Source: a virus. Taken from it: a DNA stretch of 64,000 nucleotides. The notes under the pieces are model-generated. The model saw nothing but the letters and a program-made list of their open reading frames with translations, was not told the DNA's origin and searched no databases. This document shows positions 40,555 through 56,579 of the stretch, piece by piece. The DNA lies in IMG/VR virus record IMGVR_UViG_3300044825_000904, positions 40,272 to 104,271 of that record. One strand, written 5' to 3'. A program made the position numbers and the translations under genes. The first letter of the stretch is position 1. Each line of letters starts with the position of its first letter.

Positions 40555-41940
40555 TTAGAATATTAAGAGTTTTTTCTTTGAATACTTGGTATATACCCCA
40601 TATCTAATAGCATCTAAAGCGTGATTGAAGTCATCAATTGGTTTATTAATCGGTTTACCACCCACTGTTATCCATTGATAGTTATCAATCTCCTTTTTGA
40701 TGTTCTTTGATCTCCGAGTATAATATACCTCGTATTCACGCAACTTACTTATTCCAGCATTAACAGAGTCATTTCCTTTAACCGCTTTCACGACCTTAAT
40801 CCCTGCTCTCTTTAATTCCTCAATACTTTTAGGATCAGCACTATCAGCATAAATCTCATTCAATTTATCTGGATACATCTTAATCTTCTTAATTAAATCG
40901 GAATTCGTTAATCCCTTCTCATAAATTACCTCGTCAAGGTATAACTTATTTCCGAGTTTTGCAATTCTAATCAGTGAAGTAGGGTCATTAGAGAATCCAA
41001 AGTCAAGTCCGCTAAAGATAACATCAGCATCCTTAGGAAACAGCTCACAAGGCTGCCAATCGTGATAAATTAAGCTTTCTGAACTCGGTTTAGGTGATTG
41101 TTGATATAAAGATTCGAAAGTAAATGGCTCATTCTTCTTAACTCTTAATAATTTCTCCAAGGAATGCTTCTCAGGCCATAAAGCTTCACCAAACTCCCTT
41201 TCATCATAATCATTCTCGGCTTTCTCTCGAATAGCAGGAAATTCAATGATTGTCCAATCGTTATCCCTTTCAAGTAACCTACCAGCTAAATCATCATCAT
41301 ACCACCGAGTTTGGATAAGAACTTGTGCACTATCGTTATGCAAACGAGTTTCCCACACATCGGTATACCAGTTCCATAATTGCTCTTTAATGATAATACT
41401 TTGAGCTTCTTGTCTATCCTTTAGCGGATCATCAATGATTCCAATATCAACAGCAGTACCTGTAAGTGAGCCTCCACGACCTACAGCCCTTAAATAACCC
41501 CTTCTGCCAACAGTTTGAAAGAATTCAGCAGTCTTAACTGCCTCACCCTTCTTCTCCCCTATCCTACTATCTGGATATAACATCTTAAACTCCTCACTAA
41601 GCATCCTACGCTGTATCTCCGTAGAAAATTGTTCAGCTAATGTAGCATTATAAGAAGCCAAGGCTAATTTCAAATCGGGGTTTCTACCAAGCAAGTAAGC
41701 AGGGAAGCTACGAGTAGATAATTCAGACTTTCCGTGTTGCGGAGGCACAAATATCATCAACTTCTTAATCTTACCTGCATATACCAAGTCCAAGTGATCA
41801 GCAATCACCTTGTGAAACCACCTCATATCATAATCAGGCTTGATATAAGAAACAAAACTACTAAACGACCTCCTCGAAAGTTCCCTCGTCAATATTTCTC
41901 TCTCTAATTTCGCTAAGTCGTTGTCTAATTTGGTCATCAC
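40555..41940 (-). CDS. terL: Terminase large subunit, phage B
   Basis: PPQHGKS, IIDDP.K, GLDFGFSNDP, HALDAIRY. Confidence 0.95.
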   Translation of the reverse strand: MMTKLDNDLAKLEREILTRELSRRSFSSFVSYIKPDYDMRWFHKVIADHLDLVYAGKIKKLMIFVPPQHGKSELSTRSFPAYLLGRNPDLKLALASYNATLAEQFSTEIQRRMLSEEFKMLYPDSRIGEKKGEAVKTAEFFQTVGRRGYLRAVGRGGSLTGTAVDIGIIDDPLKDRQEAQSIIIKEQLWNWYTDVWETRLHNDSAQVLIQTRWYDDDLAGRLLERDNDWTIIEFPAIREKAENDYDEREFGEALWPEKHSLEKLLRVKKNEPFTFESLYQQSPKPSSESLIYHDWQPCELFPKDADVIFSGLDFGFSNDPTSLIRIAKLGNKLYLDEVIYEKGLTNSDLIKKIKMYPDKLNEIYADSADPKSIEELKRAGIKVVKAVKGNDSVNAGISKLREYEVYYTRRSKNIKKEIDNYQWITVGGKPINKPIDDFNHALDAIRYGVYTKYSKKKLLIF

Positions 41941-42358
41941 TTAATAATTTAGGATTAACAGTATCATTATGAATACTCAAGTCTTGCTCAATACGTTGTG
42001 TGCTCTTACCATGCTCAAACTCCAACATAAAAGCAGTATTCTTTAACTCACCATTGTTTATGTCACCCAAGATAGATGAAGCCATTACAGCCATAAACCC
42101 AGGAGTATTACTATCAGCAACTAAACGCTTTAAATCAGCAACACTCAAGCTACTAATGTAAGTCATCACCTTAACCACCTCAGGTTTACTCATCCTTAAA
42201 CGATATTGCTCGTCTAAGTTCTTCATTACCTCCTTAATTACACTCTTTGGCCTACCATAAGGATTCCTAACCTCTCCAGGCTTAATGGAGTATTGTCTAA
42301 TGTTTTCGTAATTACCCCTAGGCTTCGTTTCAACTAAAGGTTGTTCTTCAGCTTCCAT
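41861..42358 (-). CDS. terS: Terminase small subunit
   Basis: KPGE..NP.GRPK motif, overlaps TerL. Confidence 0.75.
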   Translation of the reverse strand: MEAEEQPLVETKPRGNYENIRQYSIKPGEVRNPYGRPKSVIKEVMKNLDEQYRLRMSKPEVVKVMTYISSLSVADLKRLVADSNTPGFMAVMASSILGDINNGELKNTAFMLEFEHGKSTQRIEQDLSIHNDTVNPKLLSDDQIRQRLSEIRERNIDEGTFEEVV

Positions 42359-42503
42359 AATTGTAGTAGTTTATATTAACCCCAAAAAAACTTAGAATTT
42401 TTTTAGGCACTTTTTAAAATCATTTCAATAAACAAAAATCACTTTCACCATTATTATACTTATTATACTAAGAGTATACTTAATATATAATATATATCTT
42501 TTC

Positions 42504-42526
42504 TTATTTATAATCATTCTAAATAA
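42504..42526. promoter_or_regulatory. 23-bp operator-like palindrome 1 (Fur-box-like)
   Basis: TTATTTATAA-TCA-TTCTAAATAA. Confidence 0.7.
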
Positions 42527-42581
42527 TACTTAACTTCTTAATAACCAACACGTTATTGATTAAATTCCGCCCCGATTTACC

Positions 42582-42604
42582 CTATTTAGAACCATTCTTA
42601 ATAG
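42582..42604. promoter_or_regulatory. 23-bp palindrome 2
   Basis: CTATTTAGAA-CCA-TTCTTAATAG. Confidence 0.65.
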
Positions 42605-43160
42605 AAAGATTGTGTAAACATAAACATTAAACTCTCTCTAAACAACCATATTCTCTTTTTATTACAATATTCAAATACCATTTGTAAACAACTATTAACC
42701 AAATTTTGCTAGGATTTTTTTGGAGGGTTACCAGGAAAAACTACCCCCTCCCCCTTTTGCTACCCAGCTTTTTACCCTTGTACCCCTCTTTTACCCCTGT
42801 ATACCCCTATAATAAGGGCCTAACAGGGTATAAACGTAGGAAACAAAGGGTATACCAGTAGAAAGAGGTGACAGGCCGAGGGTAGCCACCCTACAAAATC
42901 CACCTTTTACCCTTGTTTCCTTGCCTTGTTACTGTTCATATATACACAAAGGGAATACAGCCCTATTATAACAGCGTTAATACCTTGCGTTTAAACCCTT
43001 ATTATTATTGAAGGTATACAAACATACTACCACTGGGTAAACACGTTAATACAAGGCAATACAAGGGCCTAAACAAAGCGTTTAATTAATTAGGTTTAAT
43101 GATCTTATATAGTGGCTATCTAAACCACCTGTTTACCTTGCTTAACTAAGTGTTTATACA

Positions 43161-43183
43161 TTATCTGTAATGATTATAAATAA
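43161..43183. promoter_or_regulatory. 23-bp palindrome 3 (degenerate)
   Basis: TTATCTGTAA-TGA-TTATAAATAA. Confidence 0.5.
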
Positions 43184-43299
43184 GGATTAAAGAAAGAAAT
43201 AAAAGAAAAAGAAAGTAAGCAAAGAAAAAGAAATACAAAGAAAGAAAAGAGAGTTACTTTTAAGTATACTATATAATATACTTAATGATATAATATAAG

Positions 43300-43353
43300 A
43301 GTATACTTAAGGGTATACTAAGGAGTATATTATATAGTATACTTAAGGGTATA
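43300..43353. repeat. 18-bp direct repeat AGTATACTTAAGGGTATA x2 in a GTATAC cluster
   Basis: Copies at 43300-43317 and 43336-43353. Confidence 0.8.
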
Positions 43354-43461
43354 ATATTTGTAATTGGTAAAAAAAGGAAAAAATTGAAATAAAAAAGCAT
43401 TTATTAAAATATATTTTTATTCCCTTATTCGGTTAAATAAGCCTATTTATACTGTTATCAG

Positions 43462-43484
43462 TAATTTATAATCATTCTAAATAA
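43462..43484. promoter_or_regulatory. 23-bp palindrome 4
   Basis: TAATTTATAA-TCA-TTCTAAATAA. Confidence 0.7.
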
Positions 43485-43547
43485 GGTGTATATTCTTATT
43501 ATACAGCGTTTAAACCTACATTTTACCCTGTTTTATATCTTATATCC

Positions 43548-43570
43548 TTATTTAGAACCGTTATAAATTA
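43548..43570. promoter_or_regulatory. 23-bp palindrome 5, adjacent to the early promoter
   Basis: TTATTTAGAA-CCG-TTATAAATTA. Confidence 0.65.
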
Positions 43571-43579
43571 GCATTAATA

Positions 43580-43611
43580 TTTGTTTACATTAATTAACTG
43601 CATTAAGTTTG
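43580..43611 (+). promoter_or_regulatory. Early promoter (-33 TTTG, -7 TAAGTTTG)
   Basis: Both Bacteroidota elements, 20-nt spacer. Confidence 0.75.
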
Positions 43612-43634
43612 TCTCAACAAAAACGGTAAACGAT

Positions 43635-43799
43635 ATGAAAAATACAGAAAAAACACAATTGTTTTGGGTAGCAGGTGATCACGTTAAAGGCTTTAAAATT
43701 CACACTAAGCAGCCCCGCCATAAATTTGTAAGAGAGCCTTTTAGCTCTCGCGAAGCTTGCCAAAGATTTATTGCATTGGAATATTTATTAAACGCTTAA
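43635..43799 (+). CDS. First early protein (start MKNTEKTQ)
   Basis: ATG just downstream of the promoter. Confidence 0.6.
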   Translation: MKNTEKTQLFWVAGDHVKGFKIHTKQPRHKFVREPFSSREACQRFIALEYLLNA

Positions 43800-43817
43800 C
43801 TAAACAAAATTACTAAT

Positions 43818-43928
43818 ATGAAAAATTACAAACCTTTTGAAATTGTTTTGATCTATTCTTTTGCGGCTGTTGCCTTTTTTATGGTTATCGCTGCAGCTTC
43901 ACAAATTCTTAACATTTTAAACTTTTAA
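43818..43928 (+). CDS. Unlisted 36-aa membrane peptide
   Basis: MKNYKPFEIVLIYSFAAVAFFMVIAAASQILNILNF. Confidence 0.55.
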   Translation: MKNYKPFEIVLIYSFAAVAFFMVIAAASQILNILNF

Positions 43929-43932
43929 TCTT

Positions 43933-44058
43933 ATGAAATTCTTATCAAACTTATTAACGGCCCTTTCAGGTGAACCAATGGAGGCCCAAACAAACGAAAT
44001 GCTTTTCGCTTCGCTTACTGTATTTATTACTTTATTAATCCTTTCTATAAACTTTTAA
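43933..44058 (+). CDS. Unlisted 41-aa membrane peptide
   Basis: MKFLSNLLTALSGEPMEAQTNEMLFASLTVFITLLILSINF. Confidence 0.55.
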   Translation: MKFLSNLLTALSGEPMEAQTNEMLFASLTVFITLLILSINF

Positions 44059-44069
44059 AATTTACAGCT

Positions 44070-44513
44070 ATGAACAATTTCAATAAATACGGATACATTG
44101 AGGACTTACAAGACCTTTTATTACAGGCTATTTTAGACAATGATTTAGATAGAGCCGATTATATTGGTGATCATATTGCAGCGGACCTAGACAATCAAGT
44201 AATATATTATCAAGATTGCTTTGAGATTGCTGAAGCCTTAAGCCTTACAAGTTTTACAGGCTATGAACTGGGAGACGCTACCAATATTTCACAATTAGCC
44301 TATTTCGGTTTATACGAGTTTATTAATGAGGAACTAGACTATAATTTTATAGAAAACGCAATAAATGCAAAGGAGGATTTTGATATCTGGGCCGCTTCTG
44401 ATAATTGCATAAACATACCAGGGGGATTGACTCAAACCCAGTGCACCCAATACGGCAAAAATTTCACCTTTTTAGAATTATTTAAATATTACTTACAAGA
44501 ATACGCAAATTAA
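44070..44513 (+). CDS. Ocr-like acidic DNA-mimic anti-restriction protein
   Basis: Very acidic; DHIAADLDNQVIYYQDCFEI resembles T7 Ocr [21 protein letters not shown]; early position. Confidence 0.65.
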   Translation: MNNFNKYGYIEDLQDLLLQAILDNDLDRADYIGDHIAADLDNQVIYYQDCFEIAEALSLTSFTGYELGDATNISQLAYFGLYEFINEELDYNFIENAINAKEDFDIWAASDNCINIPGGLTQTQCTQYGKNFTFLELFKYYLQEYAN

Positions 44514-44558
44514 CATTTTAACAAACCTTTATTTTATCACACTTAACACACAAAAAAA

Positions 44559-45122
44559 ATGAAAGCATTAAACCTTATTTGCAGCAAAAACGAGCCATTT
44601 CGTCCACAAATGGAATACATTAGACTATTAAACGGTAATTTTTACGCTACGGACGCTATTATCTTAATTAAAGTACCTTTTTACGAGGTGATCCCGAGGC
44701 CATTATTTGACGAACTTACGGCCCATTTTGGCGACGAAATGTATTTCAGTGCTCAAAATTGGAAAGATGCAAAAGTAGAAAAGGGCTGTATTTTTAAATT
44801 TAAGCCTGAATGTGATTTAATTGAAATTTTCGACAATAAAAAAAGCCTGGGATTTTTACAGGTTCATAAATCTAGCGATTTTGAGAAATTATACAGCCGT
44901 TTTCCTAATTGTGACCAGGTCCTACACACAAGCGAAGCACAAACAGAAAGTTTAGAAAGTGTTTCTATTAATCCTGATAAATTAGGGGCTTTATATAGTG
45001 CCATGGGCAAAAAAGATATTAAACTAACTTTTTACGGCCCAGGTAAGGCTATAAAGGCTAATTTTAGAGAAAGCGAAGCCCAGGCCGTAATTATGCCCAT
45101 TACATTAAATAATTTCGAATAA
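44559..45122 (+). CDS. Truncated beta sliding-clamp-like protein
   Basis: RP.M..I...YATD..IL, RFPN.DQV, IN...L, terminal AVIMPI; 187 aa. Confidence 0.7.
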   Translation: MKALNLICSKNEPFRPQMEYIRLLNGNFYATDAIILIKVPFYEVIPRPLFDELTAHFGDEMYFSAQNWKDAKVEKGCIFKFKPECDLIEIFDNKKSLGFLQVHKSSDFEKLYSRFPNCDQVLHTSEAQTESLESVSINPDKLGALYSAMGKKDIKLTFYGPGKAIKANFRESEAQAVIMPITLNNFE

Positions 45123-45350
45123 ATGCAGCGTTTCACAGTAAGGCCCAGCGATCAAATTATAGTAATTTGTCGCTACAGGGGGGAGATTATAGACAAAAAC
45201 CGTTATTTTGGCTATAAATCCATAACAGAAATAAAAGAAAGCTTTTTAGCTTGCCTACCTGTAGAATTCAAGAATACAGGTAAAAGAATAGAATTAACCT
45301 TTTTTAATGTTAATCGAACAGTTACAAAATACGTAAATACATTTAGTTAA
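45123..45350 (+). CDS. Hypothetical early protein
   Basis: Abuts the previous stop; followed by a terminator. Confidence 0.6.
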   Translation: MQRFTVRPSDQIIVICRYRGEIIDKNRYFGYKSITEIKESFLACLPVEFKNTGKRIELTFFNVNRTVTKYVNTFS

Positions 45351-45354
45351 AATT

Positions 45355-45377
45355 AGGGCCTCTTTGGCCCTTTTTTT
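45355..45377 (+). terminator. Early operon terminator
   Basis: AGGGCC-TCTTT-GGCCCT followed by a T run. Confidence 0.75.
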
Positions 45378-45727
45378 ATAGACTCTATTTTATTGCAGTT
45401 TATTAAGGCCCTTTTAGGGCTTTATTTATTTAGGCCCTGTTTAGGGCTTTTTACGTTTCTGGGGTATTCCTATTACTGCCCAGGTTTAAACCCTGCAGGA
45501 TCAAAGGAAAGAGCCCAGGACAAACCAATTAAACCAGGATAAACCCTGGACCAATTGCAAGGTATTACCAGGGCTTCAATACTTTGAATTTAAGGCCCTA
45601 AAATACACTAGCCTAATAAATTACACGTTAAAAACATTTTAAACGCTTACAAGCAAAATAAACCCTGTTAGGGGGCAAAATTTAGATTAATATGAGAGAA
45701 TACAAAACCAGTACAGGACCAAAATCA

Positions 45728-45750
45728 CTATTTAGAATGTTTCTAAATAA
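45728..45750. promoter_or_regulatory. 23-bp palindrome 6
   Basis: CTATTTAGAA-TGT-TTCTAAATAA. Confidence 0.75.
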
Positions 45751-45965
45751 GCAAAAAATGACAAGTCATAATTCTCAGGGAATTGGGGAAAAAGTGGGCG
45801 AACTCCCGAGAGCAAAAAAAGCTGATAGTCCTGGCCGAAATTTGGAGCAAATCGGTTTTTCCCTGGTGATTTTTGTGATCGCCTTGGTGGGAACTTTCAT
45901 TTTTGTTTGGTATACAGCTCTTAAACGCAATCTTTGAAAATCTTTTTAAAAATAACGAATAAATG

Positions 45966-45998
45966 TTTGCAACTATGAATAATAAATGTTTACATTTG
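45966..45998 (+). promoter_or_regulatory. Promoter (-33 TTTG, -7 TACATTTG)
   Basis: Both elements, 21-nt spacer. Confidence 0.7.
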
Positions 45999-46019
45999 TC
46001 AAATCAAAATGACAACAAA

Positions 46020-46205
46020 ATGCCAAGAATAAAAACAGTAGAAAATAAGAGAAAAGCTGGGAGACCAAAACTAGCTCCTTCGACCACAGTTTCCTTCAGA
46101 ATTCCGATTCATTTAAAGAATCAAGTTGAGAATAGATATGGGAAACATTGGCCACAAATTTTCAAAGACTTTATAGCCGTTTTATTGGCTGAAGATAAGG
46201 GTTAA
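46020..46205 (+). CDS. Ribbon-helix-helix-like DNA-binding protein (start MPRIKT)
   Basis: AGRPK then TTVSFRIP..LK strand-helix pattern. Confidence 0.6.
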   Translation: MPRIKTVENKRKAGRPKLAPSTTVSFRIPIHLKNQVENRYGKHWPQIFKDFIAVLLAEDKG

Positions 46206-46301
46206 AAACAGTGATTAATAAAGGTGTAGTGCAGTAAAATTTGAAAATTTTTTTTTCCTATTTTCTAAATTTATCACTTTTTGGAAATTTTATTTTTGGG
46301 T

Positions 46302-46646
46302 ATGAAACAAATAATCTATGGCCAAGTGCCAAGTAAGTCTAATGGTTACAGAATGTCTGGACACTTTATGTACAAGAAGAAAGCTGTAATTGATTACGAA
46401 GAATCGTTTTACTTGCAATGTGTGCAATACCGAGACTTAGAGCACAAAGGATTTTTTGAGTTATACCTAGATGTGTACTTCCAAAGCAATAGAAGCGATA
46501 TAGATGGTAGTTTAAAGATTATCCTAGATACACTTCAAAAGAAGGTAAAAGCCTTTAAGAATGACAACAAATGCGTTTTACTCCACGTTAGAAAAGGAGT
46601 TGATAAAATTACCCCAAGAATAGAATTTGAATTGAAGTTTTTATAA
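46302..46646 (+). CDS. rusA: RusA-like Holliday junction resolvase (start MKQIIYG)
   Basis: PSKSN, DIDG.LK..LD.L, NDN, PRIE; TATTTTTG 3 nt upstream of the ATG. Confidence 0.85.
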   Translation: MKQIIYGQVPSKSNGYRMSGHFMYKKKAVIDYEESFYLQCVQYRDLEHKGFFELYLDVYFQSNRSDIDGSLKIILDTLQKKVKAFKNDNKCVLLHVRKGVDKITPRIEFELKFL

Positions 46647-46777
46647 TATTAAAGAATTTACTTGTTTAAATATACGACTGTAAATATTGGCATTGAGGTT
46701 CTTAGTCGTATAACCCTCGGTACACGGTTTGCCACTGCAAGGCCACAAGTAATGACAGCTGGAAAGACAGCATATTT

Positions 46778-46851
46778 GGACTTATAGCTCAGATGGTTAG
46801 AGCAGGTCGCTCATAACGACAAGGTCACAGGTTCGACTCCTGTTTGGTCCA
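46778..46851 (+). tRNA. tRNA with CAT anticodon (Ile2-like, alternatively Met)
   Basis: TAGCTCAGATGGTTAGAGC D arm, GTCG-CTCATAA-CGAC, ACAGG-TTCGACT-CCTGT T arm; CCA not encoded. Confidence 0.9.
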
Positions 46852-46874
46852 CTAACAATTAATTTTTAACAACT

Positions 46875-47261
46875 ATGATGACAAAAGAGCAATCACACAA
46901 TTACCTAACTTATTATGCCCTATGCAACTTCATGACCGACTTCGTTGATGAGAAATGGGTACACAGTTCCTACAATGTTAGGAAGGTTAAGCTATTAACA
47001 AACCAGTTAAAGCAAGAATTAGAAAAATCAGTTGATCACGTTTTTACCAATAAAAATACCGATGGTGTTGATATGGGTAATGTATTGGAGCAATTTGTAA
47101 ATGCTGCTAATGTTATGCACTTCTTCTTTAAAATTGGTTTATTCCTAGATGAAATGCCATACGATAAGAAGCATGAGCTTAATAAGCGAATCAATGATTT
47201 ATTATTAGAGTATAACATAATTTTAACAACAGATATTAATACAAATGGACTCAATAGTTAG
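46875..47261 (+). CDS. Hypothetical protein
   Basis: 128-aa ORF in operon. Confidence 0.65.
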   Translation: MMTKEQSHNYLTYYALCNFMTDFVDEKWVHSSYNVRKVKLLTNQLKQELEKSVDHVFTNKNTDGVDMGNVLEQFVNAANVMHFFFKIGLFLDEMPYDKKHELNKRINDLLLEYNIILTTDINTNGLNS

Positions 47262-47604
47262 TGAAATTATTCAGCAATATCAGATTAGAGCTGAATTTGG
47301 TGAGAAAAAATATGGTGTTACTCTTGATAGAGAGGATTTATCCATAGAAGATTGGATAGAACACGCTAAACAAGAAGCAATGGACTTTACATTGTACCTA
47401 GAAAAGTTGAAGAAAGTGCTTGCTTCTGGTAATTATCCAGAATTAGGTAATATCGAAGCATCACATGAGACTAAAAATAGAATTATCTATAATCTTAACA
47501 GGGTTATAATGTCTCAAGAAGATGAAATTAAAGGCTTAAAAGCCGAAATTGACGAATTAAAAAAGGAATTACACAACAAAACTAAACGTGCTTGGCATCA
47601 TTAA
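47245..47604 (+). CDS. Helical phage protein, possible MazG-like NTP pyrophosphatase
   Basis: G.KKYG.TL.R.DL....W..HA.QE.MD...Y. Confidence 0.5.
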   Translation: MDSIVSEIIQQYQIRAEFGEKKYGVTLDREDLSIEDWIEHAKQEAMDFTLYLEKLKKVLASGNYPELGNIEASHETKNRIIYNLNRVIMSQEDEIKGLKAEIDELKKELHNKTKRAWHH

Positions 47605-47605
47605 T

Positions 47606-48037
47606 ATGGAAACAGTATTTAAAAAAGGTGATAGAGTATATGATGCCATGTTAGGTTGGGGAGAAATTATTGATTTTAATTATTTAAAGCGTTATTTTAA
47701 TGTTTTATTTGACACAGGAACAAGTATTTATTATTGTGAAGATGGAGCATTATACGATTATGAAAATAGAAATCAATTTAAACCTACCTTATCCTTCACC
47801 GAATACACACTTGAAGGATTTAGTCAAGAATGGCCAGAAGAATTACCTAATATAGGTGATGTAGTTTGGGTAAGAGATCACGATAAAGATTTTTGGATTG
47901 TATCCCATTTTATAAAAAAAGTAGATAATAAATATATAGTTTCTAATAACAATCCATTTACATATAGCTATACAGAATATGATGAATGGAATTTTATGAC
48001 AACAAAAAACCCTTATACAAATGAAGGCAGCATTTAG
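47606..48037 (+). CDS. Hypothetical protein (start METVFKKG)
   Basis: Two GD.V-type beta modules. Confidence 0.6.
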   Translation: METVFKKGDRVYDAMLGWGEIIDFNYLKRYFNVLFDTGTSIYYCEDGALYDYENRNQFKPTLSFTEYTLEGFSQEWPEELPNIGDVVWVRDHDKDFWIVSHFIKKVDNKYIVSNNNPFTYSYTEYDEWNFMTTKNPYTNEGSI

Positions 48038-48203
48038 ACAGTATTTAGAAGATTTAGAAGGTGGTAAAGTGCGATCAGAGGATTATTACCTTGAGTTAGA
48101 AGAAGAAATTATTAATATCGCTTACGATGCTGGTTTTAGGGATGGAATAAGCCCTGCAGAAGAATTTAATAACGATTACTTTAACTCAAATTATTTAGAG
48201 TAA
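48021..48203 (+). CDS. Small acidic protein
   Basis: Overlap-coupled ORF with I..AY.AG motif. Confidence 0.6.
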   Translation: MKAAFRQYLEDLEGGKVRSEDYYLELEEEIINIAYDAGFRDGISPAEEFNNDYFNSNYLE

Positions 48204-48213
48204 TTCTAAATAA
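48191..48213. promoter_or_regulatory. 23-bp palindrome 7, upstream of the promoter TACATTTG (48267-48274)
   Basis: TTATTTAGAG-TAA-TTCTAAATAA. Confidence 0.75.
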
Positions 48214-48296
48214 CATTAATTTTTGAAAATATTTTTAAATATTATTGTAAACAATAAATAACATACTACATTTGTATCACACAAAACAAAAATATT

Positions 48297-48527
48297 ATGG
48301 AAGAAAACTTAAAATTATTTAACTGGGAGTTAGAACGTATTGGTATAACCAAGGAAGACTTCTGGATTTTATCTATTTGGAAGAATCAGCCAGCAACTGC
48401 ACAGGCTGAATATAGGGCTTCCCTAGCAGTAAAATTTATTAAATGTGGATATAATAGTAGGGTTAATCCTAGTGGTTCTGTCACTTTTACTCATCCTCAA
48501 AACAAGTTTGAATTTACATTATCCTAA
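48297..48527 (+). CDS. Hypothetical protein
   Basis: First gene after a promoter. Confidence 0.6.
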   Translation: MEENLKLFNWELERIGITKEDFWILSIWKNQPATAQAEYRASLAVKFIKCGYNSRVNPSGSVTFTHPQNKFEFTLS

Positions 48528-48539
48528 ACAATAATTATT

Positions 48540-48776
48540 ATGGGAAGACCTAAAAAACCAGTAATTCCTACTGTAGACCCAAAGGAAGTTATTTATTATT
48601 ATGCTTCATCCGAAGCGATTTTAAATTCTCATGATGAGATTTATCCAGAACCTACTATTGATAAAGCAATAAGCTATTTAAGAGAGCAAGAAGATGAATT
48701 AGACCATGTTTTTATATTTGAAATAAAAATGAAAGGTCATTATAAAACTACATTTACTTTAGAAGAAATTAAATAA
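48540..48776 (+). CDS. Hypothetical protein
   Basis: MGRPKK start. Confidence 0.6.
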   Translation: MGRPKKPVIPTVDPKEVIYYYASSEAILNSHDEIYPEPTIDKAISYLREQEDELDHVFIFEIKMKGHYKTTFTLEEIK

Positions 48777-48787
48777 ACAATAAAATT

Positions 48788-49426
48788 ATGGCAATTATCG
48801 CAAAATCAAGTGGATCAAATTATCCAAAACAAGTTACACCTGCAGGCTCTCACGTTGCTAGATGCTACGGAATGATTGAAGTAGGTACAGAAGAAACAGA
48901 ATACAAAGGTGAGAAGAAAGTAGGACACAAAGTGATTGTAGACTTTGAATTACCTTTAGAAACTGCTGTATTTCGTGAAGGAGAGGCTGAGAAGCCCTTT
49001 GTTATCTCTAAGGAGTATAATCTATCATTCCACGAAAAAGCTACGCTTAGATTGCATTTAGAAGCTTGGAGAGGAGCAACATTTACAGATGAGGAGGCTA
49101 AGAACTTTGACATTACTAGATTAGTGGGCAAAGCTTGTATGCTTAACATTACTCACAAGAAGTCTGCCGATGGCACTAAGACTTATGCTAACATTAACAG
49201 TATTTCTCCTATTCCTAAGGGTTTAACTTGTCCTGATCAGGTAAATCCTACAAGAATCTTATCTTATTCAGATTGGAATCAAGAAGTTTTTATGGGTTTA
49301 CCCGAATGGTTAGCTAAAAAGATTACTGCAACTCCAGAATTTAATGAGAAGTTTGGTGTTTTACCTGATAATTCACCTAATCTTGATTTAGTAGCTGAAG
49401 ACCCAAGTGATGCACTTCCATTCTAA
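48788..49426 (+). CDS. SSB-like/NGO0469-family replication protein
   Basis: PAG.HVARC...I..GT, EKA.LR..LE.WRG, acidic tail ending LPF. Confidence 0.8.
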   Translation: MAIIAKSSGSNYPKQVTPAGSHVARCYGMIEVGTEETEYKGEKKVGHKVIVDFELPLETAVFREGEAEKPFVISKEYNLSFHEKATLRLHLEAWRGATFTDEEAKNFDITRLVGKACMLNITHKKSADGTKTYANINSISPIPKGLTCPDQVNPTRILSYSDWNQEVFMGLPEWLAKKITATPEFNEKFGVLPDNSPNLDLVAEDPSDALPF

Positions 49427-49713
49427 TGAAAAGAGAGACTAATTTTCTCCTAAGAGTAGTTCAAAAGAATCTAAATAGGAGAGCCTTAATTACCTATAAG
49501 CTAGGTAAAGGTTTAGAAAGCATAGAAGCTGTAGTTTTAGGATATACAGATTCATTAATTTGTTTGAGAATTAAGCATCCAAAGCCTTTTATTAATAATT
49601 CTTTGATGATTATAGAAGAAAATCCTGTAACAAAGAAAAAAGAAAGACTTCCTAAGCTTGTACAGGAGATGCTCATTCCAATAAGTAACATAACTGAATT
49701 TATATTATTATGA
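49426..49713 (+). CDS. Hypothetical protein
   Basis: TAATG-coupled ORF. Confidence 0.6.
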   Translation: MKRETNFLLRVVQKNLNRRALITYKLGKGLESIEAVVLGYTDSLICLRIKHPKPFINNSLMIIEENPVTKKKERLPKLVQEMLIPISNITEFILL

Positions 49714-49916
49714 TAGATATAGAATTATCAAGGGGTGAAACCCTTACAGAAGTCTATCAAAATATAGCAGATAGGCTTAATGAAAAAGGAAAGATTCCAT
49801 TTAGAGCACGAAAATATACTCAAGCTATAGTTCATAGCCATGTGTACAAAAGAATCTTTGACAATCAAATAGAAGAAGAAATAAACATAATTAAAGATGA
49901 ACGAAGAAATAATTGA
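49710..49916 (+). CDS. Small possible HTH protein
   Basis: YQNIADRLNEKG pattern. Confidence 0.5.
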   Translation: MIDIELSRGETLTEVYQNIADRLNEKGKIPFRARKYTQAIVHSHVYKRIFDNQIEEEINIIKDERRNN

Positions 49917-50094
49917 TAAGGAGTTTTGGGAATCACATCAACTAATGCTTTCTAGTCATTACTGGGATTACACCTTTGCAATGCTTGAGTTTATGATGAA
50001 TGATGTTTATCCTTCTGATTTTAGGGAATTTTCTCCCGATGGAGTAGTAAAAGATTATTTTAAGAATAAGTTTAAAATTACAGCAAGACAATGA
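49897..50094 (+). CDS. Hypothetical protein
   Basis: Overlap-coupled ORF. Confidence 0.55.
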   Translation: MNEEIIDKEFWESHQLMLSSHYWDYTFAMLEFMMNDVYPSDFREFSPDGVVKDYFKNKFKITARQ

Positions 50095-50330
50095 CACCTA
50101 AAGAAAAAGCTGAACAATTGTTTAATAAATTTAACAGTGCGTTAATTGATGAAATTAAACATAATGCTGCTAGAAATTTTGCATCATTTAATTGTGCTTT
50201 AATTGCAGTAGATGAGATATTGTTTTCTGGAGTACACAAGGATAACTATTATTTAGATAAATCTCTTGGCTATACAATTACTTTTCAAGAGTATTATCAA
50301 GAAGTTAAACAAGAATTAATAAAACTATGA
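50091..50330 (+). CDS. Small Bacteroidota phage protein
   Basis: MTPKEKA..L...CALIAVDEI...YQEVKQE pattern. Confidence 0.7.
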   Translation: MTPKEKAEQLFNKFNSALIDEIKHNAARNFASFNCALIAVDEILFSGVHKDNYYLDKSLGYTITFQEYYQEVKQELIKL

Positions 50331-51067
50331 CACACGATCAAATCATACAAGCGTTAAAAGATGACAATGAATATTATAATGGCTTAGGTAGAAGCTACTT
50401 GTCTAATTCTGACATTGGAGTTTTACTTAATAACCCTGTAATGTTTAAGAAGAAGTCTGAAAAGACTTTAGCAATGCTACAAGGAAGTTATTTTCATACA
50501 GCTTGCTTAGAGCCTCACAAACTAAAATCATTCCCTTTAGTTGATGCCTCCACAAGAACTACTAACATTTACAAGGATGCTTGCAAAGAATGCAATGAGC
50601 CTTTTATGTTATTGCTTAGGGAAGCTGAAGAAGTAGATGAAATGGTTAAAGCACTAAGAGCTAATACTGATTTATCTAAGCTAGTTTGGGATAGTGGTAT
50701 TAAATACGAAGTGCCAGCAATTGGTGAAATTGAAGGTTTACTTTGGAAAGGTAAGGCTGATATCATTAATGGAGACTTTATCTACGATTTAAAGACTACA
50801 ACTTCATTAGATGACTTTAAGTATTCCGCTAAGAAGTATAATTACGATTCTCAAGCATTTATCTACAATCATCTATTTGGTAAGGAATTAGCCTTTATTG
50901 TTATTGAAAAAGGCTCTAATCGCTTAGGTTTCTTTGAATGTTCCGATGAATTTATGGAATCTGGAAGAATGAAAGTAGAACACGCTATGGGTATGTATCA
51001 TTTATACCATGGTCCTAATGCTACAAGAGATGTTAATCAATATTATGTATCTAAAGTTTTATTCTAA
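50327..51067 (+). CDS. PD-(D/E)XK exonuclease (RecE/ExoVIII, DUF3799-like)
   Basis: LSNSDI, G..FH...LEP, KGKAD, YDLKTT, YDSQA.IY. Confidence 0.9.
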   Translation: MTHDQIIQALKDDNEYYNGLGRSYLSNSDIGVLLNNPVMFKKKSEKTLAMLQGSYFHTACLEPHKLKSFPLVDASTRTTNIYKDACKECNEPFMLLLREAEEVDEMVKALRANTDLSKLVWDSGIKYEVPAIGEIEGLLWKGKADIINGDFIYDLKTTTSLDDFKYSAKKYNYDSQAFIYNHLFGKELAFIVIEKGSNRLGFFECSDEFMESGRMKVEHAMGMYHLYHGPNATRDVNQYYVSKVLF

Positions 51068-51249
51068 TGGCACAAATTATTCACGCTGATGGCTCAATTA
51101 TTGACCAAGATCAAAAACGTAATGAATTGGGTTATACAATCCAAGAAGCCTGGACACACCAAGCTAAAATGTTAAAAGAGGCTTACAGATTTTTAAAACT
51201 AACCAATGCAGAGAAAAGCAATAAAAACAGACAGAACAGAGTGTCCTAA
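51067..51249 (+). CDS. Hypothetical protein
   Basis: TAATG-coupled ORF. Confidence 0.55.
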   Translation: MAQIIHADGSIIDQDQKRNELGYTIQEAWTHQAKMLKEAYRFLKLTNAEKSNKNRQNRVS

Positions 51250-51442
51250 ATGTGGACACAAACATCCTGTACAGCAATTATGGGATTACTTTGATCAAAG
51301 TTTAGCCGAATATTCTGTAATGTACAGATGTATGTCTTGTGATCAGAAAATTAAGATGGAAGTAAATGTAAATGGGTTTTTAGTATTAAGAAATGATAGG
51401 CCAAGGAAAAAACCAAGCATTTTACAACCAGAAAGCTGTTGA
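51206..51442 (+). CDS. Zinc-ribbon protein
   Basis: CPKC and CMSC. Confidence 0.65.
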   Translation: MQRKAIKTDRTECPKCGHKHPVQQLWDYFDQSLAEYSVMYRCMSCDQKIKMEVNVNGFLVLRNDRPRKKPSILQPESC

Positions 51443-51629
51443 ATGGGTAGATGAGTTTATGAAGAATAATGAGCCATTGATTGACTTTATTTCTTTTGAT
51501 GGCCACATTATTCATAACTCTCACTACACATTAGAACTCTGGAAAACCAGATTATTAAATAACAAAGGAGCTGAAGAAAGAGCAGCGTTTATAAGAATTA
51601 AGAAATTTAAAGATTGGTATAATGGGTAA
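51393..51629 (+). CDS. Hypothetical protein
   Basis: Overlap-coupled ORF. Confidence 0.55.
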   Translation: MIGQGKNQAFYNQKAVEWVDEFMKNNEPLIDFISFDGHIIHNSHYTLELWKTRLLNNKGAEERAAFIRIKKFKDWYNG

Positions 51630-51837
51630 AATCATAATTAAGAACAATACAGATATATCTGATATTAGTGTTTTAGAATGCGTAAAAGATGTTATAAATG
51701 CTGGAAGAATTTCCAACAATGATACTCAATATTGTTACTTAACTGTATTTAAGATTAATGGTATAGAGCATCATATTGTAACTGATTTGCGTAAATGTTC
51801 TGATGTTTTTACTTTTTACAAAAGCTCACATAAATAA
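51622..51837 (+). CDS. Hypothetical protein
   Basis: GRISN...QYCY.T.F. Confidence 0.6.
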   Translation: MGKIIIKNNTDISDISVLECVKDVINAGRISNNDTQYCYLTVFKINGIEHHIVTDLRKCSDVFTFYKSSHK

Positions 51838-51838
51838 T

Positions 51839-52204
51839 ATGGAAAAAGAATTTGTAACATACGAGCAAGCATTAGCCTTAAAGGAATTAGGGTTTGATCA
51901 AGAATGTTGTGGGGGATACAAGAAATCATTCCCTTATGATAATGAATGGAAATTTTACATTGATGATATATATTGTCAAATTCAAGCCCCACTTAAACAA
52001 CAAGTATTTAGATGGTTTGATAAAAAGTATAATTTATTTGGATACATAGAAAGGTTTCAAGGTGGCAGATATGAAGATGTAATTTCTGGCAATTTTATGG
52101 AAGAATATGATGATGGAATATTTTTTGATACAATTGAGGATGCAGAAAATAATTGCATTAACAGATTAATTGAATTAGCTAAACAACAAGACAATGGAAA
52201 ATGA
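51839..52204 (+). CDS. Bacteroidota phage protein (start MEKEFV)
   Basis: YEQALALKELGFD..C, AP..QQ.FRWF. Confidence 0.7.
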   Translation: MEKEFVTYEQALALKELGFDQECCGGYKKSFPYDNEWKFYIDDIYCQIQAPLKQQVFRWFDKKYNLFGYIERFQGGRYEDVISGNFMEEYDDGIFFDTIEDAENNCINRLIELAKQQDNGK

Positions 52205-52328
52205 AATGCGTGAAGACATTAAGAAAGCACTTAAATTTGTAGAATATGCTGTATTTTCAGCTCTAATCATAGGTTTAGTGCTAGGTGGTGTAATTGGTGG
52301 TTTAACAGTATTTGCTTTAATGAGATGA
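52194..52328 (+). CDS. Unlisted 44-aa membrane protein
   Basis: MENEMREDIKKALKFVEYAVFSALIIGLVLGGVIGGLTVFALMR; ATGA overlap with the next gene. Confidence 0.6.
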   Translation: MENEMREDIKKALKFVEYAVFSALIIGLVLGGVIGGLTVFALMR

Positions 52329-52801
52329 GAAATAAGATGCTAGGATTAGGTGATTTCTTTCAAGAAGTTCTATCTAATATGAATTTAGTGATCAGAGATG
52401 AAGAATTATTAGCTTCATTGAATCAAACTAAGCTTACAGGAACTCCTGGTTTAGAAATTCTATACACTAAGACTAAAGAATTAGAGCCATTAGCTATTCC
52501 TATGGTTAATTCTCAAGATATTTTAGAAGATGTAGAGAAGAAAGAAGCTAAATTCTTAGAGTTTTGGAATACATACAATAAGAAAACAGGTCAAATTAAA
52601 GCAAAACCTAGATTCCTAAAGCTTACTTGGAAAGAAATTGATGCTATATTTGCAACCCTTCCACACTATTTAAAGGCAACTCCAGATGTAAAGTTTAGAA
52701 AAGACCCTTTTACTTACTTAAATCAAAGGACTTGGGAAGATGAAATGTACTTACCAAAAGCCCAAGAAGCTAAAAAGAATATAGTATTTAGATTCGATTA
52801 A
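52325..52801 (+). CDS. Replisome organiser/initiator C-terminal-like protein
   Basis: F.EFW..Y.KK.G...A...F.KL, P.TYLNQR.WEDE; upstream of dnaB. Confidence 0.7.
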   Translation: MRNKMLGLGDFFQEVLSNMNLVIRDEELLASLNQTKLTGTPGLEILYTKTKELEPLAIPMVNSQDILEDVEKKEAKFLEFWNTYNKKTGQIKAKPRFLKLTWKEIDAIFATLPHYLKATPDVKFRKDPFTYLNQRTWEDEMYLPKAQEAKKNIVFRFD

Positions 52802-52818
52802 AATTAAGAGTTACAACT

Positions 52819-54171
52819 ATGAAAGCTAAAGAGAAAATATCATTTACCGATTTAGATGCGGAAAAGGAAGTTATATCACTAATCACTTCTAATCCTTCTG
52901 CATTTAAACAAGTGCAAAAAATAATCAAACCAAACATATTTCACTTCGAACAAACTAGAAGTGTATTTTTGGCTTGTGCTGAGTTATTTTCTGAAAAGGG
53001 TAACTATACCTTAACCGATGTAGTATTGAGGCTTAAATCAAGCGGAAACAATGATTGGGCTACCTTATTAGCCTCCACAACTACTCATTCATCTACAAGT
53101 ACCAATGAATTACTCATTTACCTAGCTGAATTGAAGGGTAAGAGAGATTTAATGGACTTATCAAGACAAATCACTAATGATTTAGCTAACGGATCAGATT
53201 ACTTTTCTTTGGTAGACAAGGTAAACTACATTACTAATCAAGAGATGTTTAAGGATGACGATAAGGAGATTGTAGATATGAAATCTGCCTTAGTGGATGC
53301 CTTAAATAATCTAGGAGATGTAATGACTAATGGACAAACTGCAGGAGTTCCTACAGGTTATCCTAAGTTAGATGATATTACAGGTGGGTGGCTAAAAGGT
53401 AATGTTATCCTATTTGCTGCAAGGCCAGGACAAGGTAAAACCATTTGCCTACTAGAACACGCTAGGAATGCCTCCGCTATGGGGCATAATGTATTATTCT
53501 TATCCCTAGAGATGCCTGTGATATCTTTGATTTACCGAATGATTTCTGGAACATTGGATAGTTATACCCCTTACTCCAAAATAAAGACAGGAAGGATAAA
53601 TATTGACCAATTTTCGGCTATTCAAAAGGATGCTATAGCTAAACTAGAAAAGCTACCTATTACTTGGTATGATGGAGCTAATAGAGATATCAATTATTTG
53701 TCGGCTTTAATACAAAAGATTGTAAGAGAGAAAGATATTAAAATGGTGGTTATTGATTATATGCAATTGATAACTGATTCTAACATTAAGAGTAATGATG
53801 AAACAGCCGTAGTGGGATCAGTATCCAAGAAGATACAACAGTTATCTAAGAAGTTAGATATTCCTTTCTTATGTGCTGCCCAATTAAATAGACAATCAGA
53901 AGGAAGAAGCTCACATAGGCCAAAACTATCAGATTTACGTTCTTCTGGACAAATTGAACAAGATGCTTCCGTAGTTATTGGATTATATAGAGATGACTAT
54001 TATAAGTATGAGAGAGCTAAAGAAGAAGGTAATAACAATGTAGAGTTTGATAATACCATTGAATACATCTTTATGAAGAATAGAGATGGACTAACTGCAA
54101 CCCACGAAATGTTCATTGATGTAGCCACATCTAAAATAAAAGAACATAACTTTATAGGGAACAAATTTTGA
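52819..54171 (+). CDS. dnaB: Replicative DNA helicase
   Basis: AARPGQGKT, SLEM, IDYMQL, AQLNR, LSDLRSSGQIEQDA. Confidence 0.97.
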   Translation: MKAKEKISFTDLDAEKEVISLITSNPSAFKQVQKIIKPNIFHFEQTRSVFLACAELFSEKGNYTLTDVVLRLKSSGNNDWATLLASTTTHSSTSTNELLIYLAELKGKRDLMDLSRQITNDLANGSDYFSLVDKVNYITNQEMFKDDDKEIVDMKSALVDALNNLGDVMTNGQTAGVPTGYPKLDDITGGWLKGNVILFAARPGQGKTICLLEHARNASAMGHNVLFLSLEMPVISLIYRMISGTLDSYTPYSKIKTGRINIDQFSAIQKDAIAKLEKLPITWYDGANRDINYLSALIQKIVREKDIKMVVIDYMQLITDSNIKSNDETAVVGSVSKKIQQLSKKLDIPFLCAAQLNRQSEGRSSHRPKLSDLRSSGQIEQDASVVIGLYRDDYYKYERAKEEGNNNVEFDNTIEYIFMKNRDGLTATHEMFIDVATSKIKEHNFIGNKF

Positions 54172-54201
54172 GTAAGTTAATTTTTTTCATAGTTGTAAAT
54201 T

Positions 54202-54270
54202 AATCCCCTTGGTTATTGACCTTGGGGATTTTCGTTTATAACGCAAAAAGGAGGATAAAATCCCCCTAAT
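54202..54270. terminator. Terminators between convergent operons
   Basis: AATCCCC...GGGGATT plus T run on the plus strand; weaker hairpin next to AAAAA for the minus strand. Confidence 0.6.
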
Positions 54271-54327
54271 TGCACACACAATCCAAATCACACAAAACGT
54301 ACTGCAATTTAGGAATTAATATTAGAA

Positions 54328-55560
54328 CTATAAATTCACTTTAGTTCCTATCATTCCCATATATGTTTGGGGTACTATTGGGTTTGTATTGAATGATGTT
54401 TTTAATGCAAAATTGAACTTAAATCGTTTAGTAAACGCAATATCGAAATTAAATCCAGTCATTACACCAATATCATCACCAGTTACAAAAACTTTTTGAT
54501 CAGTTAGATACCCAGTTGAGCTACCAGATAGATAAACATCTGGGCTAATAGTAAGTCTTTTGCTCACTTTTACAGGAATAGTATAAAATAATAAGATGTT
54601 ATTTGACAAATTAAGGCCATTATCAGCTCCTGCTACACTAAATGTATAGTTAGCACCACTAACACCATATTTACCTAATGGATAGATATAAGCTGCAGTA
54701 GCAAAGCCTAGCACACTTCCACCTAGATAAACTCCAGTAATACCATAGTTGCTTATGGATTGTAGCTTACCCTCATTGAAGTTCATTAAGGTATATCTAC
54801 CACTTAAAGCAAACTGATCAAATGTAGACCAAATCATTGAAGATATACCCCAAGAAGTGTTTCCCATTAAAGAAGATTGAGACATTCCTACGGAAGCTAT
54901 AATAGATACCACATCCGTAGTAGGGGCAATAGTGAAGTCACTAGAATAAATAATAGGATTAACTTTAGCTACACTCTTAGAAGAAGATTTCTTTTCTGAT
55001 TTACTTTCTGATTTAGATTCTTCTTTCTTTTCCTCACTCTTAGATTCAGAGCTACTTTCACTCTTTTCTTCACTCTTGGACTCCGTTTTAGTTTCTGATT
55101 TAGTTTCAGTCTTAGGAGTTTCAGAAGATGATGAAGAAGAACTAGAAGTTGTAGAAGGTGCTGGAGTAGATACAGGAGGAGGGCTAGAAACAGCAGCAGA
55201 AGTAGCAGCACTAGCTGCAGCACTTGTAGCAGAAGAAGTTGCTTGAGATGTAGCAGCACTTGTAGCTTGAGCTACTGCTTGTTGTACTGCTTTAGCTACT
55301 GTTTGTGTTACAGCAACTTCAGCCTGTGGGCAAGGAAAATTTACAGTTAAGTTATTAATCCAGGCTTGTAATTCACCTGTAGTGATATCATTTGCTGTTA
55401 CTACCCGATATTTGCCACGATACACTATGGTAGTTTTTCCATTTGCAATAGGTACTGTAACCACTACTACCTGACCAGAACAAGGGTCTACAAAAGTTTG
55501 TGTCAGAACTTGTGCTTGGGTTAATAAAGGAAGGAATAGTAGTAGTAATAACCATTTCAC
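54328..55560 (-). CDS. Secreted protein with Ala/Ser/Glu/Lys linker and C-terminal outer-membrane beta-barrel
   Basis: Signal peptide ending TQA-Q; two-Cys N-domain; alternating strands ending GTKVNL. Confidence 0.7.
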   Translation of the reverse strand: MKWLLLLLFLPLLTQAQVLTQTFVDPCSGQVVVVTVPIANGKTTIVYRGKYRVVTANDITTGELQAWINNLTVNFPCPQAEVAVTQTVAKAVQQAVAQATSAATSQATSSATSAAASAATSAAVSSPPPVSTPAPSTTSSSSSSSSETPKTETKSETKTESKSEEKSESSSESKSEEKKEESKSESKSEKKSSSKSVAKVNPIIYSSDFTIAPTTDVVSIIASVGMSQSSLMGNTSWGISSMIWSTFDQFALSGRYTLMNFNEGKLQSISNYGITGVYLGGSVLGFATAAYIYPLGKYGVSGANYTFSVAGADNGLNLSNNILLFYTIPVKVSKRLTISPDVYLSGSSTGYLTDQKVFVTGDDIGVMTGFNFDIAFTKRFKFNFALKTSFNTNPIVPQTYMGMIGTKVNL

Positions 55561-56267
55561 TATTTGAAGATTTTTTTCTTGATCATTCTAACAATAATCT
55601 TACTTGCAGCACCCTCAAGAGCTTTCTTCGTAGAAGCTCCAATAGTTGATTGATTGAACTTTATCTCACTAAAGTTATTATCGTTCATTAGAGTAGCCTC
55701 TCTAGTAGTCTTAGCATCACCTAAACCACTTCCTGTAAAGTATTCTCCTGTTTCAGCATTAACAAACTTAACTTGTAAGCCTAAACGAGTAACTACAGTT
55801 TGCTTTACCCCATCCTTTAAAGAAATAGATTCGTCTTCACTAACACTAAAGTCGTAAACCTCAATGTAGACAAAGTATTGAGCTAATTTAATCTTACCTC
55901 TACCATCTAGTTTATTCTCGGTAATACCTGATTGAGATGCTTGAAATTGCTTAACCATTCGATTTTTAATTTCAGCTTTTTCTTCAGTAAAGGTAAAACG
56001 ATTAGTTTCTTCTAGGAATTCGACAACAATGTTAGTTACACCTAGTCCTACACGCTTATCTTTTAATTCTGGATAAGCAGCGTATACTTCATCATTAATG
56101 CCTAATGATAGAATTTGGATAGGAATCTTAGGTCCATCATAATCCATCAAAGAATCAATGTTTATCTTTTTTTCAAAAGAAGCCACATAAGCCTCCGTTT
56201 TAGTGGAAGCTATCTGTGACAACCCTACAAAAGAAATAAACAAAAAAGGAATTAGGTATTTTACCAT
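55560..56267 (-). CDS. CsgG/HfaB-like protein
   Basis: Y.GPK.PI, L.ETNRF...E, AQY.V...V.DF, L.VKFVNAETGE...SG.G. Confidence 0.75.
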   Translation of the reverse strand: MVKYLIPFLFISFVGLSQIASTKTEAYVASFEKKINIDSLMDYDGPKIPIQILSLGINDEVYAAYPELKDKRVGLGVTNIVVEFLEETNRFTFTEEKAEIKNRMVKQFQASQSGITENKLDGRGKIKLAQYFVYIEVYDFSVSEDESISLKDGVKQTVVTRLGLQVKFVNAETGEYFTGSGLGDAKTTREATLMNDNNFSEIKFNQSTIGASTKKALEGAASKIIVRMIKKKIFK

Positions 56268-56578: not shown

Positions 56579-56579
56579 A

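Follow-up and report, generated by a model that had tools for sequence, protein, structure and literature searches.

Conserved palindromes around Bacteroidota-type promoters of a phage are candidate operators for a host Fur-family metalloregulator

The window analysed here is a stretch of viral DNA of 64,000 nucleotides, bases 40272–104271 of the 104,271-bp IMG/VR record IMGVR_UViG_3300044825_000904, and the element in question is a 23-bp palindrome, TTATTTAGAA-N3-TTCTAAATAA, seven copies of which lie at window positions 42504–48213 with 1–4 mismatches over the 20 specified positions. A gene-free region of 1.28 kb divides a leftward late operon (a terS-like open reading frame (ORF), terL and virion genes) from rightward early genes, and the promoters of the phage are of the Bacteroidota type, TTG/TAnnTTTG. 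All transcription starts were predicted from this promoter consensus. The palindromes (sites 1–7, to which no strand applies), promoters and genes on which the analysis turns are as follows.

40555–41940, minus strand: terL, in the late operon after the terS-like ORF
41861–42358, minus strand: first ORF of the late operon, preceding terL and called 'terS' by position only
42504–42526: site 1, 1 mismatch; second box in the late-operon leader, 146 bp upstream of the terS-like ORF; position kept in relatives
42582–42604: site 2, 3 mismatches; starts 10 nt downstream of the late promoter -7 box, 224 bp upstream of the terS-like ORF
42615–42645, minus strand: late promoter predicted by promoter scan, directed towards terS, with -7 box TATGTTTA at 42622–42615 and a weak -33 box
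43161–43183: site 3, degenerate central palindrome, 4 mismatches; better copies at the equivalent place in relatives
43462–43484: site 4, 2 mismatches; distal early box, centre at ~-143 from the P1 start, 86 bp from site 5, kept in relatives
43548–43570: site 5, 2 mismatches; proximal early box, core starting 31 bp before the P1 -33 TTG, centre at ~-56
43581–43611, plus strand: P1, early promoter, TTG-N20-TAAGTTTG, perfect Bacteroidota consensus, conserved in relatives
45728–45750: site 6, 1 mismatch over 20 with a perfect 19-bp core, 237 bp before P2
45967–45998, plus strand: P2, promoter of the gene for a 61-amino-acid protein termed ribbon-helix-helix (RHH)-like, TTG-N21-TACATTTG, conserved in relatives
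46020–46205, plus strand: the 61-amino-acid basic protein itself, with a KKAGRP...SxRIP motif, the only visible candidate DNA binder of the phage
48191–48213: site 7, 1 mismatch; core starting 52 bp before the P3 -33 TTG, centre at ~-77
48245–48274, plus strand: P3, promoter of the replication/recombination operon, TTG-N19-TACATTTG, perfect, with a DUF3799 nuclease and a DnaB helicase downstream

Six of the copies were found at three mismatches or fewer, versus 0.06 in dinucleotide-preserving shuffles, and no further site at up to four mismatches occurs anywhere else in the 104,271-bp record. When the palindrome was reduced to its 19-bp core, ATTTAGAA-N3-TTCTAAAT (16 specified positions), site 6 was perfect, sites 1, 2, 4, 5 and 7 each carried one mismatch and site 3 carried four; the T-N-A spacer that completes the 7-1-7 centre AAT-N-ATT is present in only three of the seven. 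An earlier note on this DNA, made from its letters, had listed these seven palindromes and reported no full copy elsewhere in the window, both of which were borne out. It had also described one site as ending 9 nt before the -33 box of an early promoter and another as preceding the replication-operon promoter; these are site 5, ahead of the TTTG of P1 (43580–43583), and site 7, ahead of P3. Its statement that two sites lie upstream of terS is right as to sites 1 and 2, which stand ahead of the ORF preceding terL, whereas the gene name rests on position only.

On the late side, the -7 box was conserved as TA.GTTTG, and an alignment of 15 relatives showed the succession TAnGTTTG, 10–12 nt, palindrome. 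Site 2 spans about +5 to +30 of the predicted late transcript, and site 1 lies 78 bp further on, at ~+85 to +105. On the early side, the relatives share a conserved block at site 5 (TCCTTATTTAGA..T.TAAATTA), and 31 nt separate the end of site 7 from the -33 box of P3. A small membrane-protein ORF has an in-frame ATG at 45758, 7 nt beyond site 6; in two relatives without that ORF (L015 and L021), the equivalent box is found ~52 bp before the -33 box of P2. From their helix-phased positions upstream of the -33 box, sites 5 and 7, and the box before P2 in these relatives, look like an activator layout, while, judged against the predicted late promoter, only site 2, on the terS side, sits in a repressor position.

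The site pairs are found at the same places in every relative that covers the region, and the central and distal sites are usually also present. Column identity in de-duplicated relatives was 92–93% for the arms, 70–73% for the spacer and 64–70% for the remaining intergenic DNA, so that the conservation in related phages, which the earlier note had proposed as a check, is indeed seen. Deviations in one arm were not matched by changes in the opposite arm, and these uncompensated changes fit two protein half-sites rather than an RNA stem. It is highly improbable, in our view, that the palindromes are RNA hairpins, packaging (pac) sites, replication-origin elements or chance AT-rich repeats. In favour of such roles, the late leader would include sites 1 and 2 as RNA, two sites stand near terS, a frequent place of pac sites, and the intergenic region contains other repeats. 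However, P1 and P3 would not transcribe sites 4, 5 and 7, which precede the predicted starts of these promoters, Rfam matched only a tRNA-Met gene, and the fixed promoter offsets seen in unrelated phages (below) do not fit pac or origin elements. A structured RNA was rejected on the Rfam result, the placement of several sites ahead of the predicted starts of adjacent promoters and the non-compensatory arm changes, and a chance origin was rejected on the expectation of 0.06 and the lack of copies elsewhere in the 104 kb.

Other repeats and structures were observed in the same region. A second repeat family consists of palindromes centred on GTATAC (AGTATACTTAAGGGTATACT type, four or more copies) at window 42456–42497 and 43255–43357, which flank site 1 and occupy the mid-intergenic region; the 15-mer TAAGAGTATACTTAA occurs exactly twice, 827 bp apart, and in relatives TATA-rich repeats akin to this family come after site 1. 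A protein made by the phage, such as the 61-amino-acid one, may have these repeats as its operator. C-rich direct repeats (TTTTACCCTTGT type, at least six copies) are embedded in AT-rich intergenic DNA at window 42740–42925, 43121–43143 and 43512–43534; they gave no Rfam match and could be origin iterons or another binding array. Three successive terminator-like GC hairpins with T tails (window 45355–45449) end the first early operon (five such hairpins found versus 0.5 expected in shuffles), and a gene-poor stretch of ~300 bp then leads to site 6. The tRNA-Met (CAT) gene, at window 46778–46852 between a RusA-like gene and the next early genes, was the only DNA similarity to cultured phages (including Cellulophaga and Bacteroides phages) within the queried window 42000–49000.

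The ends of the record fall within a fibre gene that is 81–95% identical to parts of the 1715-amino-acid fibre gene at 23005–28152, and complete relatives of the palindrome-bearing part measure only 36.9–39.4 kb; for these two reasons the 104-kb record is best read as two phages joined via their common fibre gene. Relatives of terL (82–100% identity) were found on contigs of 35–39 kb, five terL-related contigs were rated 100% complete (two of the five with terminal repeats), and a relative of 39,434 bp was collinear with the window from 42300 to 62000. The palindromes are best read as belonging to a phage of ~39 kb occupying roughly window 21,900–61,200, and the part of the window assigned to the other phage (1–22000 and 61200–64000) contains none. 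Among the nearest cultured terL relatives (35–44% identity) were Parabacteroides and Flavobacterium phages, and also phages of unrelated hosts. In line with the earlier note, which had seen no CI-type repressor or integrase, the whole 104-kb record yielded no tyrosine integrase, and its sole XRE-type helix-turn-helix (HTH_3) sits in the other phage of the chimeric contig, with none in the palindrome-bearing phage or its five complete relatives. Likewise, no gene in the whole record matched the FUR domain (PF01475) at E ≤ 10, with the search controls positive, and a phage-encoded Fur was rejected.

The element is widespread in Bacteroidota phages and not special to the window phage. The same box, flanks included, was present in many other viral contigs, and five complete or near-complete phages (30–40 kb, GC 31–45%) contained 2–4 boxes each, all intergenic, versus 0 for a control pattern. 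When the proteins of these five were compared with those of the window phage by all-against-all BLASTP, three shared only terL (44–48%), joined in two of these by one 79-amino-acid ORF, and the other two shared nothing. Among cultured-phage records with the box, 80 of 91 infect Flavobacterium, Polaribacter, Cellulophaga, Leeuwenhoekiella or Prevotella; three boxes were counted in Polaribacter phage Freya_1, and Flavobacterium vB_FspS and Cellulophaga phages are also among the carriers. Since the same box stands in phages with such different proteins, its binder is most simply a host protein.

This recurrence bears directly on an alternative, which we regard as unlikely, in which the palindromes are bound by a regulator encoded by the phage itself (the 61-amino-acid protein or another small early protein) as its own early/late switch, their likeness to a Fur box being coincidence or mimicry. 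The 61-amino-acid protein is kept in all five complete close relatives, whose matches to its profile (1e-19 to 1e-36) served as positive control; S25 and R27, two of the protein's 16 invariant residues, fall in a predicted strand; the box of L015 and L021 precedes the promoter of its gene, and dimeric or tetrameric phage repressors would suit 23-bp palindromes. By contrast, the same profile gave no match at E ≤ 1 in the five other complete box-bearing phages, which share almost no proteins, and the box is thus not confined to phages that encode this protein. Moreover, the protein diverges to 34–52% identity among close relatives while the operator stays fixed, and phage-specific operators usually diversify, whereas this box is constant over phages of several host genera and equals host iron-regulon sites. 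The second repeat family (AGTATACTTAAGGGTATACT type) is also available as the protein's own target. As for its fold, the RHH label given to it in the earlier note could not be upheld: searches of Pfam, PHROGs, PDB sequences and profiles, and Foldseek gave no match, and the AlphaFold model (two short strands and one long helix, of moderate confidence at pLDDT 76) lent the label no support; the protein stays a candidate binder on account of its conservation.

The position of the box relative to promoters was assessed at 117 viral loci, among the matches listed, that had been chosen for a perfect core, with a promoter defined as a perfect TTG-N17-22-TAnnTTTG within -150 to +160. At these loci, 40 of 62 box-promoter pairings had offsets of 30–59, versus about 6 under a uniform spread. 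Offsets peaked at 30–32, 38–43 and 52–53, one helical turn apart, with 52–53 the commonest, and the pairings derived from ~30 contigs with differing intervening sequences. Both P1 (offset 31) and P3 (offset 52) of the window fall in these recurrent classes. Near-identical leaders (for example GTCAAGTATTAACATTTAAACATTTAGTTAT) were also observed after box-served promoters in otherwise different phages (L218, L264 and L271; L172 and L215; L162 and L190), which suggests a conserved transcript start or a small RNA downstream of the box-promoter cassette.

To place the box in cellular genomes, an exact ATTTAGAA-N3-TTCTAAAT was sought in one genome per prokaryote species, and the figures given here apply among the matches listed. 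The loci were mostly in Bacteroidota, with a second group in Alphaproteobacteria, and the perfect core was intergenic at 72 of 80. The commonest families among the 79 genes flanking Bacteroidota loci were hemA glutamyl-tRNA reductase (9), AraC regulators (8), multihaem or c-type cytochromes (5) and TonB-dependent receptors (4), further families being sufS, SufBD, Fe-S assembly, Fe/Mn superoxide dismutase and NqrA. In five flavobacterial genomes, sites with 0–1 mismatch precede sufS, nuoA, a multihaem cytochrome and two TonB receptors. Given these neighbour genes, the box is read as the mark of an iron, haem and Fe-S regulon.

Across 41 genomes of the genus of one of the genomes studied (G006, Flavobacterium sp. 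AED), 101 sites were found at no more than one mismatch versus 45 for a reversed control pattern, and at least 11 of these 41 have the perfect box sequence that stands beside sufS in G006 and G007. Host-site counts are informative at one mismatch or fewer only, since at up to two mismatches the five flavobacterial genomes showed no enrichment over control. At the stricter threshold, host genomes of 2–5 Mb hold about 2.5 boxes each (two to four), and the phage has six strong boxes in 5.7 kb. One Fur-family gene was present in each of two Flavobacterium genomes examined, which makes Fur the sole member of the family at hand in them; autoregulation of host fur through the box was rejected, as no box adjoins a fur gene in five genomes. 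In a small sample of host promoters, the box stands at offsets 41–42 and 53 for two cytochrome c genes and nrdD, while the box of a TonB receptor lies over the -7 region and that of sufS 6 nt before the start codon.

In its full form, TTAGAAT-N-ATTCTAA, the box has the 7-1-7 shape of Fur-family operators, which is known from the Fur, PerR and Zur boxes of B. subtilis (the PerR box being TTATAAT-N-ATTATAA). At positions that the search left free, viral sites agree with those of Bacteroidota hosts, with T at -2 in 67% and 64%, respectively, and T/A at -1; the T-N-A spacer is found in 80% of 123 viral sites versus 57% of host sites. Alphaproteobacterial sites, unlike these, favour G at -1. That second group is explained, as judged from the matching motif, by the iron control element (ICE) of Irr, TTTAGAA-N3-TTCTAAA; Irr is a Fur-family protein, and the ICE acts positively or negatively according to its position (PMC1698941). 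An alphaproteobacterial host with Irr was ruled out for the window phage by its perfect TTG/TAnnTTTG promoters, its Bacteroidota-type flanks, its nearest cultured terL relatives (Parabacteroides and Flavobacterium phages among others) and the cultured carriers, mostly on Bacteroidota.

A corresponding box has been described in a flavobacterium. The earlier note had named a Fur box of Riemerella anatipestifer that sites 1, 4 and 6 match at 17 of 19 positions and site 7, on the other strand, at 18 of 19; both the box and the counts proved correct. Guo et al. 2017 (PMC5609570) predicted this box, ATTTAGAATTATTCTAAAT, with RegPredict from Fur-regulated genes, and four R. anatipestifer promoter fragments were shifted by Fur in electrophoretic mobility shift assays (EMSAs), in which isolated boxes were not tried. 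For the R. anatipestifer box, the abstract of that paper prints the E. coli Fur consensus, its results and discussion give ATTTAGAATTATTCTAAAT, and PMC7976709 repeats the version of the abstract.

These host data also bear on a further alternative, that the binder is a different host factor (another global regulator, a nucleoid protein or the RNA polymerase alpha subunit) and the palindrome an enhancer of promoters throughout the phylum, with no connection to iron. Any upstream activator or UP-like element would be expected to show strict helical phasing ahead of strong promoters, and the link of Fur to the exact motif in the host of the phage is itself deduced from sequence. We nevertheless consider such a factor improbable: the host copies adjoin iron, haem and Fe-S genes rather than strong promoters generally, the motif in its full form follows the 7-1-7 plan of Fur-family operators, Irr, itself a member of that family, binds the same core in Alphaproteobacteria, and Fur shifted box-containing promoters in R. 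anatipestifer.

Taken together, we put a probability of about 0.6 on the palindromes being operators for a host-encoded Fur-family metalloregulator, with Bacteroidota Fur (box T-TAGAAT-N-ATTCTA-A) as the best candidate binder, because the box is identical to Bacteroidota iron-regulon sites, the phage has no Fur of its own and the box recurs in unrelated phages without the RHH-like protein. Activation of the early promoters by host Fur, with restraint of the late operon, is given the same rough weight, and the gene programme of the phage is probably tied to the host regulator and to the iron state of the cell. What has been observed is the sites themselves, how they are conserved and arranged, and that they are identical with iron-regulon sites of hosts; from these observations we infer the identity of the binder, the sign of regulation and the trigger. 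The earlier note had cast host Fur as the repressor or timer of the phage, or else the array as a means of titrating Fur to derepress host iron uptake. The host Fur-family box in that proposal is supported by the iron-regulon identity, the lack of a phage Fur and the unrelated carriers, but the repressor role would extend to site 2 alone, most sites being placed as for an activator.

In the mechanism that we propose, a phage without its own Fur would borrow the host protein, and host holo-Fur would bind the seven boxes. The boxes at ~-56 (P1) and ~-77 (P3), together with the P2 box in relatives, would lie on one helix face, and metal-loaded Fur would most likely stimulate these promoters. With one box just downstream of the late promoter and a second 78 bp on, bound Fur would most likely block the terS/terL-virion operon, so that the early-on/late-off state would depend on host holo-Fur. 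The late operon could then be released as replicating phage DNA titrates Fur, or through a drop in cellular iron; from box positions and counts, titration by replication could both open the late operon and derepress host iron uptake.

A broader version of this proposal is possible, though we hold it only tentatively: Fur boxes may be a general control element of Bacteroidota phages, serving here as a copy-number timer. At entry, holo-Fur would be in excess, boosting the early promoters and blocking the virion operon. Each replicated genome would then add six strong boxes, as against two or three per host chromosome, until Fur was soaked up and the late operon opened; host iron-uptake and Fe-S assembly genes would in turn be derepressed, to the benefit of the phage. 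In iron-starved cells, the programme would be altered or deferred.

Several points weigh against host Fur as the binder and regulator. P1–P3 already have perfect consensus sequences and may need no activator, and it would be surprising for virion genes to be repressed in iron-replete cells without some titration or anti-repression step to free them. The published Flavobacteriales box is a RegPredict prediction, with EMSAs on whole promoter fragments, and the abstract of the paper disagrees with its results as to the box; at the phage sites, Fur is a predicted binder. The excess of near-consensus sites over control in the 41 host genomes is only about 2-fold, and the viral loci were taken by exact match, among the matches listed, and some are mutually related. 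Finally, a small basic protein with invariant Ser and Arg in a predicted strand is present in every close relative and, from its predicted features, could bind the same sites.

If host Fur does read these boxes, the consequences would reach beyond this phage. Flavobacteria and related bacteria play a major part in degrading the carbon of algal blooms, in waters that are often iron-scarce. Were their phages to sense iron directly through the host regulator, the timing and burst of an infection would depend on how much iron is supplied; if the timer proposal is true, phage production in lakes and oceans would be linked to that supply. The DNA of an infecting phage could also reprogramme the iron uptake of its host, and the box would provide a compact, portable iron-responsive promoter module for Bacteroidota genetics. 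The presence of the box in cultured phage-host pairs (Polaribacter phage Freya, Flavobacterium vB_FspS and Cellulophaga phages) makes the idea directly testable. A literature search found no paper linking Fur to phages of Bacteroidota.

Among known systems, the Riemerella Fur box (ATTTAGAATTATTCTAAAT) is similar in having the same 19-bp inverted repeat and spacing, with at most one of 16 specified positions changed in six of the seven phage sites; it differs in that the phage sites are dense on the phage DNA and mostly upstream of promoters rather than over them. The Irr ICE of Alphaproteobacteria has an identical 17-bp core, but the phage promoters are of the Bacteroidota type, the phage flank has T/A where the ICE has G at -1, and the cultured carriers mostly infect Bacteroidota. 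In placement, the phage resembles the dual Fur of Caulobacter crescentus and Neisseria meningitidis. In Caulobacter, Fur sites upstream of the -35 box were found by experiment to activate the iron-using genes nuoA, sdhC and acnA, while uptake genes are repressed from sites that overlap or follow the polymerase site (PMC2724300). Both placements are seen in the phage, and the host offsets at cytochrome c genes and nrdD, set beside the placement at the TonB receptor and sufS, are akin to this dual logic; the phylum, the box sequence and the -33/-7 promoter type are different, and the phage case is argued from geometry alone.

The use of host regulators by phages has precedents in Spo0A sites of the virulent phage phi29, CtrA sites in alphaproteobacterial phages and LexA boxes in GIL01 and others (PMC9437464, PMC4551915). 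As in those cases, several intergenic, promoter-associated sites for a host factor would be conserved in related phages that lack a gene for the regulator. What differs here is that the candidate is the iron sensor Fur, that the hosts are Bacteroidota and that the layout is helix-phased and upstream rather than promoter-occluding; if the proposal is correct, Fur and an activator-type layout would be added to the short list of host regulators (Spo0A, CtrA and LexA) co-opted by virulent phages.

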